A stretch of DNA of 49,537 bases from Candidatus Thorarchaeota archaeon (GTDB lineage: Archaea; Asgardarchaeota; Thorarchaeia; Thorarchaeales; Thorarchaeaceae): assembly GCA_048884785.1 (NCBI GenBank), contig JBHLQM010000020.1, positions 1-49,537 on the forward strand, given 5' to 3'. Below the pieces are notes generated by a model. It searched no databases. It worked only from the letters and a program-made list of their open reading frames with translations, and was not told the origin of the DNA. A program made the position numbers and the translations under genes. Position 1 is the stretch's first letter; every line of letters starts with the position of its first letter. Below, piece after piece: positions 24,532 to 46,130 of this stretch.

Positions 24532-24732
24532 TTGGCTAAAAAGAAAGCACCAGTTAAGCTACCAACCTTCGTTGTCAAATCGGCAATCAAGGAGTTCGCG
24601 AAGACAAATGACATGATGGTGGGCTCTGACGCCTATGATGCCATCAATGTGAGAATCGGTGAGATGCTCATGGCAGCAGCTGGCCGATGCAAAGAGAATA
24701 AGAGAAAGACCTTGAAGGCCTACGATCTCTAA
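24532..24732 (+). CDS. Short histone-fold protein (truncated alpha3) with a Lys-rich N-terminus
   Basis: FVVKSAIKEFAK...MMVGSDAYDAI...AAGRCKENKRKTLKAYDL carries the histone R(K)T...D motif. GAGGTG RBS and TTG start. Confidence 0.85.
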   Translation: MAKKKAPVKLPTFVVKSAIKEFAKTNDMMVGSDAYDAINVRIGEMLMAAAGRCKENKRKTLKAYDL

Positions 24733-44355: not shown

Positions 44356-45162
44356 ATGAACAAGCGCAATGAAAAGGCATGGGATAAGCTGTCAGAATAC
44401 TATCAAAACTCCCGCAGACTTTCGCTTGATAATTTCCACTATGGTGCCTTTGCGCCAGGGGATAAAGAACTGGGAATCCTTGGAGATGTAAAAGGTCTCG
44501 ATGTGTTGGATGTCGGATGTGGTGGGGGTCAAAACTCCATTGTGCTTGCAAAGATGGGCGCAAAATCCGTCAAAGCAATTGACCAGTCCGAGATGCAATT
44601 AGGCCATGCAAGGAAACTTGCAGAAGAACAGGGAGTATCTATCACCTTTCTAAAGAGAAACATGGAAGAACTTCTGGGTCTAAATGATGCTTCATTTGAT
44701 CTTGTTGTATCTTCTCATGCAATGAACTACGCTTCAGACCTCATCAGGGTATTCAATGAGTGTGCTAGAGTTCTTCGATCAAAAGGTAGAATTGTCATCT
44801 GTCTTAATCATCCATTGTACGTCGTGCTAGGACAGGCACTTGAGGATGATGACTTCTCAAAGATAGTCAATTATTTTGAAGGAATTCGTGATATTTGGGA
44901 TTGGACCAATGCTGACGGAGAGATGATTGCGACCTTTGAATCGAGGTCGTGGCGGTTTGAGCATATTATCAATGGGCTTATTGAAACGGGGTTCGTTGTA
45001 GAACGAGTCGCAGAACCAAGAGGATATACAAAAGAAGAGATGGATGAGCTTCCCCTAGACGCAGTCCCGTATCAGGACATTGGTGTCATAAATGAGGCCT
45101 TCATTCGTACAAATCGAATTATACCAAGCACGATAATCGTATCAGCAATCAAAAAGGAGTAA
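44356..45162 (+). CDS. Class I SAM-dependent methyltransferase
   Basis: VLDVGCGGG, FDLVVS and RVLRSKG motifs. Confidence 0.9.
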   Translation: MNKRNEKAWDKLSEYYQNSRRLSLDNFHYGAFAPGDKELGILGDVKGLDVLDVGCGGGQNSIVLAKMGAKSVKAIDQSEMQLGHARKLAEEQGVSITFLKRNMEELLGLNDASFDLVVSSHAMNYASDLIRVFNECARVLRSKGRIVICLNHPLYVVLGQALEDDDFSKIVNYFEGIRDIWDWTNADGEMIATFESRSWRFEHIINGLIETGFVVERVAEPRGYTKEEMDELPLDAVPYQDIGVINEAFIRTNRIIPSTIIVSAIKKE

Positions 45163-45169
45163 AAACAAA

Positions 45170-45198
45170 TGGACACGGGTAATCAATACCCGAGTCCA
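45170..45198 (-). terminator. Hairpin terminator between the convergent methyltransferase and micropeptide genes
   Basis: TGGAC-CGGGTA/TACCCG-GTCCA stem; TTTGTTTTT follows on the minus strand. Confidence 0.6.
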
Positions 45199-45237
45199 AT
45201 GAATATAGCATGAGTATGCTTTGTGCTCTAAAGAAGA

Positions 45238-45312
45238 CTACTTCTTTCCCTTTTTCTTTGGAGCAGCGGTTTCTTTCTTCTTACCCTTGGCTGCGGGTTT
45301 CTTCTTTGACAA
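45238..45312 (-). CDS. Lys-rich micropeptide, 24 aa (MSKKKPAAKGKKKETAAPKKKGKK)
   Basis: Hand-translated. GAGGAG RBS 8 nt before TTG, TAG stop, downstream terminator. Confidence 0.65.
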   Translation of the reverse strand: MSKKKPAAKGKKKETAAPKKKGKK

Positions 45313-45465
45313 TTAATTTCTCCTCGTTGAAGTCCGGACATTTATTCTGTCCAGAGCACATGCGTTATACTCACCAACCGCGATCAGTGAGGGAGCTCGG
45401 ATGCTGGGCTTACACTGTCCCAAGGGATGTGCCAACACCCTGTCCTCGGCCCAGCTTTATCGCTC
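45313..45465 (-). promoter_or_regulatory. Structured 5' leader of the Lys-rich micropeptide
   Basis: Three stems (45403-45455, 45370-45391, 45333-45355). The G-U wobbles in the latter two form only on the minus strand. AATATAG TATA-like element at about 45486-45492. Confidence 0.5.
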
Positions 45466-45691
45466 TTGATTAAGAACGGAGTCTTCTATATTGCAGTTTG
45501 CATATTCTACCTCAGCTGATTTGAGGACCTAAATAGATTGACTAATTTAAATATAAGATAATGTGCGCTAAATTTCAGAGGGCGCTTTTCGGTTCTATAT
45601 TGAAATTCCAGTTGCTTGATCTTTACATCATTCCCAAATCGAAACATTCGTTTCTCGTGGTGATTAAATACAATTAAACTGGAAGGTATTG

Positions 45692-45982
45692 TGTGAGAGA
45701 GCAGGACTGAGGGCATAGCTATACTCAATCATGTTAGGTCTGTGAATCGGGGGGTTCCAGTCCGTGGTTTAGTTCTATATGTATGCCTTCTTTCTGTATG
45801 GCCCTACCCTAATGAGGGCTCAAGGGTGGGTCGTCTCTCACAGCGATTCGGACTTTATTAGGAATAGCACCAATCCATGATTAAGGAAGTTTCGTACTTC
45901 ATCTCATGGCGGGTGCGTGGGCTAGTTTTCCGTAATATGCCCTCATACGAGACCCCCTCTTACCGATTCCCACGAATCCGCC
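45692..45982 (+). ncRNA. Putative structured non-coding RNA or long cis-regulatory leader (unassigned)
   Basis: At least 6 helices of 7-14 bp with G-U pairs on the + strand; TATA-like ATTAAATA about 25 nt upstream; no credible ORF. Confidence 0.5.
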
Positions 45983-46130
45983 ACCTCTTAACAGGAGAGA
46001 TAATAGTAGGCTCAGCCCTGGTTACTGCAGAGAATTGGAAGAGTTATCCATCCTAGAATACGTCTACCTAGTTGCGTCAATGGCAAAGAAGATAGTTATC
46101 TCCCTGAGATACGAATGAATATCTACGTGA

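Follow-up and report, generated by a model that had tools for sequence, protein, structure and literature searches.

Can an open reading frame (ORF) of 24 codons, half of them specifying lysine, be a genuine gene, and if so, what might its product do? This question is raised by a locus on the minus strand of a 49,537-nucleotide (nt) stretch of DNA from a Candidatus Thorarchaeota archaeon of the family Thorarchaeaceae (assembly GCA_048884785.1, contig JBHLQM010000020.1, positions 1 to 49,537), which we refer to as the window; in our numbering of the assembly it is contig C20. An earlier note on this DNA described a lysine-rich micro-ORF, here called the K ORF, with a TTG start, a GAGGAG ribosome-binding site, the product MSKKKPAAKGKKKETAAPKKKGKK and a 3' hairpin followed by T-runs. 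All of these can be read directly in the sequence (Table 1), and our comparisons show that the ORF and its ribosome-binding site are conserved in relatives, bearing out the proposal that this is a genuine peptide gene that has escaped annotation. Our best explanation of the locus, to which we assign a probability of roughly 0.55, is that the K ORF is a functional microprotein gene from a family of electrostatic pairs, and that the pair is split in this genome.

A family of lysine-rich microprotein genes

In the K ORF product, 12 of the 24 residues are lysine and the net charge is +11. Because the codon directly upstream of the TTG, in frame, is TAA, the TTG is the only possible start. This start is no mark against the gene, since TTG and GTG are usual for micro-ORFs in this genus, whose acidic ORFs (described below) begin with one or the other. 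A six-frame scan of the assembly (158 contigs, 3.6 Mb in total) yields 62,248 ORFs with lengths of 15-60 codons, and just two of them encode at least 18 residues with at least 35% lysine: the K ORF itself and a 31-codon ORF on contig C62, MGSKKPTTKKPPAKKAGAKKEAKATEKPKKK. Given that so few small ORFs are equally rich in lysine, and given the conservation of the family, the K ORF is not a product of chance.

The first true relative came from a scan of the ORFs around one of the chance purine-tract matches of a nucleotide search: a 24-codon ORF of another genus, MAKKKPATKKKKAEPKAAPAKKKK, preceded by AAGGAG and starting with ATG. The pattern M-[S/A]-K-K-K-P-A yields 24 matches in 22 of 86 Thorarchaeaceae genomes, and the reversed control yields none; 21 of the matches, the window ORF included, are ORFs of 19-25 codons. 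K micro-ORFs found with this pattern occur in four of the 16 Thorarchaeaceae genera, three of them besides the window's own, a distribution that depends on the patterns used, such that divergent forms may be missed.

The window ORF resembles the family at both ends. Its N-terminus reads (TTG)M-S-K-K-K-P-A-A-K, and it shares with the other members its length, a run of lysines at the C-terminus in frame, a Shine-Dalgarno-like (SD) site 5-10 nt upstream of the start, and a downstream hairpin with a T-run. The C-terminus, which the pattern does not demand, is KKKK(K)-stop in 19 of the 20 other family ORFs; the exceptions are the ORF of locus L061, which ends in KKKKKTKK, and the window ORF, which ends in KKKGKK-TAG. 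SD-like sites of the GGAG-, GAGG- or GGATGTGA-type lie 5-10 nt before the start in all family members, and a hairpin and T-run follow the K ORF in all 20 members examined, with the T-run beginning 44-76 nt after the stop. The peptides are 19-25 codons long, or up to 33 in divergent subtypes, and have a K/P/A/T composition without arginine or aromatic residues; the sequence and the length of their middle part vary.

Selection on these ORFs appears to act on the peptide. In two sets of three genomes the same peptide is encoded by different DNA, with two or three differences per pair, and in all six comparisons every difference is synonymous. Across the family, all four alanine codons (GCA, GCC, GCG and GCT) are used at Ala-2, lysine codons alternate between AAG (178) and AAA (84), and stops alternate between TAA and TAG. 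Aligned start-to-start and stop-to-stop, the window ORF is 66-74% identical in nucleotides to the family ORFs, with no similarity beyond about 10-25 nt 5' of the start; this restriction to the ORF and the SD region fits selection at the level of the peptide rather than a recent copy. The earlier note had stated that its proposal would fall if the ORF and ribosome-binding site were not conserved in relatives and the purine-rich tract varied without preserving frame; instead, both are conserved and the changes are synonymous. Together, these results make it very probable that the window K ORF is a true member of a conserved coding family. We infer that it is translated in the organism, as an unannotated gene for a disordered, polycationic microprotein of 24 residues.

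The acidic micro-ORF and the K ORF

A conserved, divergently transcribed gene of ~270 codons starts ~400 nt 5' of the K ORF at 19 of the other 20 loci of the family; the single K locus without this gene is cut by the end of its contig. Between the two lies an acidic micro-ORF of 25-29 codons with the pattern M[HYVC]FDDED.W.DDDDD.W.DDDDDDW and a perfect GAGGTGA SD. This Asp/Trp ORF is the most informative context of the K ORF, and the earlier note missed it. The acidic pattern gave 26 matches in 25 genomes and none in the control; one match falls within a large protein and another locus is truncated where its contig stops, which leaves 24 acidic ORFs, 20 of which have a K ORF 67-98 nt on their 3' side. 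The K family is therefore confirmed independently of the K pattern. The two peptides have opposite charges of similar magnitude: acidic peptides carry a net charge of -17 to -20, K peptides mostly +9 to +13, and a divergent relative of the C62 type (L067) carries +7.

The same order of genes recurs in another Asgard family, f5, where an acidic-then-K pair is found in at least four genomes with gaps of 38-43 nt; in one example, a 39-codon acidic ORF is followed after 43 nt by MSKKKPAKKATPAKKATPAKKATPAKKKPAKK. The gene adjoining the f5 pair is unrelated to the ~270-codon gene of the Thorarchaeaceae loci, which argues that the conserved unit is the peptide pair and not the neighbouring gene. A structure prediction for the complex of the acidic and K peptides of f5 returned a score of 0.02, controls not having been run, and carries no weight for or against binding. 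One f5 K ORF (L094:1501-1599, genome G144) contains three exact KKATPA repeats that derive from an 18-nt tandem repeat, so such genes can grow by slippage.

The ~270-residue neighbour is a basic protein that has no sequence match in Pfam or the Protein Data Bank (PDB). Its AlphaFold2 model is good, with a mean confidence (pLDDT) of 85, and the best fold match is a weak one, to PaaX (E = 1e-3, TM-score 0.24). The module of acidic ORF and ~270-codon gene is present in at least nine Thorarchaeaceae genera, with or without a K ORF. In genus g6 (L066, L073-L079), the spacer between the acidic ORF and the K ORF contains a recurring stem, AGCAAT.CGTCC with GGATGTGATTGCT; it would sequester the SD of the K ORF and the bases before its start, and may place the K ORF under translational control relative to the acidic peptide.

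Neither the K nor the acidic peptide matches a family in Pfam or NCBIfam; the sole profile hit, to the Rv3852 family, is non-significant (E = 0.84). For the window K ORF, Pfam returns nothing at E <= 10 and thus no histone-fold domain, which spans ~65 residues. An exact look-up of five peptides found none of them among 15 billion called proteins, and a literature search on Asgard small ORFs gave nothing relevant.

How is the pair arranged in the genome that contains the window? There are exactly two acidic micro-ORFs in this assembly, on contigs C1 and C62, and two K micro-ORFs, in the window and on C62. Contig C62 (21 kb, L038), which thus carries a complete pair, aligns collinearly, at 77-85% identity, with genomes of genus g6 (G076, G084); the window contig reaches 65-75% identity at most to any genome, those of its own genus included. 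The contamination estimate for the assembly is 5.4%, and C62 is probably a mis-binned contig from another genus. Excluding it leaves the organism with a single ORF of each kind, acidic and K, at unlinked sites. The acidic ORF on C1 is divergent from a paralogue of the ~270-codon PaaX-like gene and has a terminator directly 3' of it; relatives of this type are found in L089-L092, L152, L154, L156 and L157, and an acidic ORF stands beside the paralogous ~270-codon gene in four of the six other genomes of the genus.

Several observations weigh against reading the K ORF as a functional member of an electrostatic pair. The K ORF is absent at four of the 24 acidic ORFs in K-bearing genera, and the acidic ORFs examined in genera g1, g2, g7, g8 and g9 all lack it, so the acidic peptide needs no K peptide. 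The window K ORF is itself a detached member: it does not lie at the paired position 3' of an acidic ORF, and it shares no flanks with the family loci. Three patterns find no K micro-ORF in the six other genomes of the genus, the two patterns additional to the first having matched only lysine tracts inside large proteins; the window copy is thus confined to this lineage and may not be essential. Finally, the sequence is of low complexity, and part of the similarity is possibly convergent, above all that to histone tails. Judged from these distributions, the K peptide is an accessory partner with a patchy occurrence.

Sequences flanking the K ORF

Table 1 Features of the window K ORF and of the acidic micro-ORF in the same genome.
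Feature	Position	Strand	Details
K-rich microprotein coding sequence	45238..45312	-	TTG start; 24 codons; TAG at 45238-45240
Shine-Dalgarno-like site	45320..45325	-	GAGGAG, 7 nt 5' of the TTG
Terminator-like hairpin	45170..45198	-	GGAC-U-CGGGUA, loop, UACCCG-U-GUCC
Two T-runs	45151..45169	-	TTTGTTTTT and CTCCTTTTT, 3' of the terminator-like hairpin
8-bp hairpin	45333..45355	-	UCUGGACA-GAAUAAA-UGUCCGGA (DNA TCTGGACA/TGTCCGGA); ends 7 nt before the SD
Remainder of the proposed leader	45356..45492	-	No significant structure, homologue or acidic ORF remnant
Acidic micro-ORF	C1 27857-27952 (L159:1046-1141)	-	31 codons; MFIEKLWFDEDDEDWDDDFDDDWADDDDDDW; TTG start; GAGGTG SD

The terminator-like hairpin is more stable than expected by chance (z = -4.15 and -4.51 relative to shuffled sequences; none of 200 shuffles equals it). 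The T-runs that follow overlap the 3' end of a convergent S-adenosylmethionine (SAM)-methyltransferase gene on the plus strand (44356-45162), the stop codon of which is at 45160-45162.

On the 5' side, the earlier note had proposed a structured leader of ~150 nt with three hairpins and, from it, control of the gene at the RNA level. Our analyses do not support either proposal. Folded as a whole (150-180 nt), the leader gives z = -1.45, and 19 of 200 shuffles are as stable; taken alone, the GCTGGGC/GCCCAGC domain gives z = +0.30 and the hairpin CTCACTGAT/GTTGGTGAG gives z = -1.86. Only one of the three, the 8-bp hairpin just upstream of the SD, beats its shuffles (z = -4.06, with 0 of 200 as stable), and the one TATA-like A/T run near the K ORF is its loop. 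A nucleotide search with 45170-45500 found no homologue of the leader in 60 relatives, the only matches being chance ones to the purine tract; Rfam, at the gathering cut-off and at E <= 10, gave nothing relevant for this region, and ARAGORN reported no tRNA. The region is thus neither stable beyond chance overall nor conserved; a structured cis-regulatory leader would be both, and would show covariation. What precedes the K ORF in relatives is instead the acidic micro-ORF. No acidic ORF lies within 520 nt 5' of the window K ORF; the idea that the leader is a decayed acidic ORF is not supported, as it has neither similarity to one nor any Asp-rich frame.

The K ORF stands in a segment of 968 nt without long ORFs (45163-46130), between the convergent methyltransferase gene and a gene for a BNR-repeat protein. 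Nothing alignable to this segment is present in same-genus genomes that share the synteny of the thioredoxin, Hjc-like and methyltransferase genes. The segment also contains the stretch 45692-45982, which had been suggested to be a structured RNA forming a single locus with the K ORF. The conserved part of this stretch is an element of ~88 nt at about 45908-45989 on the plus strand, which is present in two to six copies each, at 80-85% identity, in several Thorarchaeaceae genomes (loci L022-L032) and has a second copy in this genome (C41:11714-11820). A long terminal helix, GGCGGGUG.CGUGGG / CCCACG.ACCCGCC, is accompanied by an inner hairpin, UUUCGUA/UACGAAA, and by a C-rich sequence that is unpaired and resembles an anti-SD, CUCCCCCCUCCUACC. 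With no match in Rfam and no tRNA identity, the element could represent a family of small RNAs not yet recognised. In the window the copy is degenerate, having a deletion in the C-rich stretch and lacking an upstream motif that the other copies have in common. Given that the element is multi-copy, and that no K ORF is found at the loci of its other copies, the suggestion of one locus is not supported.

What the K peptide may do

The acid-then-K pairs of related Asgard archaea indicate that the window K ORF is probably half of a charge-matched pair. In the usual setting, the K gene is the second of a two-gene micro-operon and encodes a member of a family of 19-33-residue, K/P/A/T-rich microproteins; the first gene encodes a polyanionic Asp/Glu peptide of 25-39 residues, studded with aromatic residues that are mostly Trp. 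We propose that the K peptide would bind and neutralise a polyanion, the first candidate being the co-encoded acidic peptide, and that in such a charge-matched pair each peptide would buffer or titrate the binding of the other to its own targets, nucleic acids (DNA or RNA) in the case of the K peptide and basic surfaces of proteins in that of the acidic peptide. The K peptide could alternatively or additionally have DNA, RNA or tail-recognising proteins as ligands. In this genome the pair is split, with the acidic gene on C1 by the PaaX-like gene and the K gene alone with its own SD, TTG and terminator. For the electrostatic pairing of the two peptides as such, we would put the odds somewhat below even.

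The acidic-then-basic microprotein tandem matches no known family or system. In eukaryotes, prothymosin-alpha and linker histone H1 form a disordered polyelectrolyte pair of high affinity. The archaeal peptides are likewise extremely acidic and lysine-rich disordered partners of opposite net charge; they differ in being 4-10 times shorter, in being encoded in one operon, and in the regular spacing of Trp in the acidic member. It is conceivable, if rather doubtful, that Asgard archaea have a two-peptide polyelectrolyte system, a miniature counterpart of prothymosin-alpha and H1, in which a disordered, charge-matched complex controls whether lysine-rich tails, or the acidic aromatic motif, gain access to chromatin or a protein hub common to both; in this lineage the window gene would be the basic half, no longer linked to its partner. 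Bacterial nucleoid proteins with K/A/P repeats, such as Hc1, the C-terminal tail of mycobacterial HupB and the Rv3852 family, have a similar low-complexity K/A/P/T composition, but these are proteins of 100-200 residues or tails on folded domains.

A closer resemblance is to histone tails. Outside the family, the K pattern mostly picks out the N-termini of tailed histones from a further Asgard family, f9, which are 77-88 residues long; 24 of 135 f9 genomes have the pattern and most matches are tailed histones, for example MAKKKPAAKKRESYIAKAPIRRLM... The start MAKKKPA(A/P)KK is common to K ORFs and these tails, and one f9 histone, identified by a PF00808 match at E = 4.5e-10, has a tail of 24 residues, MAKKKPAAAKPAKKKAPAAKKGEG. 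The likeness to a histone tail that the earlier note pointed out is therefore real at the level of sequence. A recent preprint reports methylation and acetylation of Asgard histone tails, on which acetyltransferases and sirtuins act, and makes no mention of free tail-like peptides (bioRxiv 10.64898/2026.07.02.735847). Tailed histones such as HLoB, described in the same preprint, have the same MAKKKPAAKK/MAKKKPAPKK opening, and their tails are K/P/A-rich, disordered and similar in length to the K peptide. Unlike them, the K ORF has no histone fold and stops after 24 codons, and in relatives its gene is linked to the acidic micro-ORF and not to histone genes.

Two shorter proteins from Thorarchaeaceae also begin in this way. 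L039 (genome G020), from the window's family, encodes a 67-residue histone-like protein that starts MAKKKPAKKP and matches PF00808 only weakly (E = 0.004). The window itself contains, at 24532-24732 on the plus strand, a 66-codon histone-like ORF, MAKKKAPVKLPTFVVKSAIKEF..., which has a TTG start, begins MAKKKAPVK and has no Pfam match at E <= 0.01. The two represent a short, divergent histone-like family with a miniature lysine tail.

These similarities bear on a different reading of the K peptide, as a separate peptide in the manner of a histone tail or H1, one that binds DNA or chromatin directly, or that acts as a decoy or substrate for tail-modifying enzymes, with the acidic peptide as a chaperone-like antagonist. 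The shared opening, the 24-residue f9 tail, the two histone-like ORFs that begin alike and the reported modification of Asgard tails by enzymes are all consistent with it, but a likeness over 7-10 residues of low-complexity sequence cannot establish the common descent of the K peptide and histone tails, the K ORFs show no linkage to histone genes, and the two Thorarchaeal histone-like ORFs are themselves below the Pfam threshold or unmatched. We consider this reading unlikely; it also overlaps with our best explanation instead of excluding it. A second possibility accepts the family and doubts the window copy, taking it as a decaying or neutral orphan that is unexpressed or unneeded after losing its place behind the acidic ORF and that ORF's promoter. 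Such an orphan would explain why one of seven genomes of the genus has a K ORF, why there is no acidic partner 5' of it, why its flanks are unconserved, and why it sits in a gene-free stretch together with a degenerate copy of a multi-copy element; its TTG start could be added to this list, although TTG and GTG are normal for micro-ORFs of the genus. Yet the ORF is intact and of typical family length, with a good SD at typical spacing and a strong terminator, and the similarity to the family persists only within the ORF, which would be unexpected for an old, dead copy. If C62 is foreign, moreover, this is the only K ORF that the organism has. We regard decay as quite improbable.

Two further readings place the K ORF in translation. 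The earlier note had also raised the possibility of a ribosomal peptide, and tiny ribosome-associated proteins such as eL41, bTHX, bS22 and bL37 are indeed comparable in size (~24-38 residues) and in strongly basic charge, and are often left unannotated or missed by gene callers. These proteins are Arg/Lys-rich, of fixed sequence and universal within their clades, whereas the K peptides use lysine only, without arginine or aromatic residues in their K/P/A/T composition, are free to vary in their middle and in length (19-33 residues), and share an operon with a polyanion rather than with translation genes. Their distribution is also patchy: with the patterns used, K ORFs are found in four of 16 genera, not throughout the clade as expected of eL41, and within K-bearing genera they are missing at some acidic ORFs. 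The eL41 profile (PF05162, 25 positions) has no match at E <= 1 genome-wide, in a search so insensitive that none of 14 control genomes passed it either. A ribosomal role is very unlikely on this evidence. Still less credible is a regulatory micro-ORF, in which ribosomes slowing on the lysine codons would report on the supply of lysine or tRNA-Lys, and the acidic ORF on Asp or Mg2+. Runs of lysine codons and of acidic codons do perturb elongation in other organisms, and the spacer stem of g6 would occlude the SD of the K ORF; but the K ORF has no gene to regulate on its 3' side, where it meets a terminator directly and then a convergent gene; synonymous change has preserved the N-terminal M-[A/S] and P-A; and the lysine codons are mostly AAG and not the slippery AAA.

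We therefore return to the K ORF as a functional microprotein gene from a family of electrostatic pairs. Standard gene callers miss genes of this size, and comparison alone was enough to establish that a 24-codon ORF is real and under selection. The arrangement is new as well: a hyper-acidic/hyper-basic microprotein tandem that is conserved in two Asgard families. Its basic member opens just as the lysine-rich tails of Asgard histones do, and its acidic member resembles the acidic, aromatic-anchored segments that bind basic proteins in eukaryotes; the pair would thus be a small model for the working of disordered segments, both tail-like and acidic, at a time before chromatin of the eukaryotic kind. 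Even if the K peptide were only a counter-ion for the nucleoid or for RNA, Asgard genomes would still gain a gene family that is widespread and has gone unannotated.

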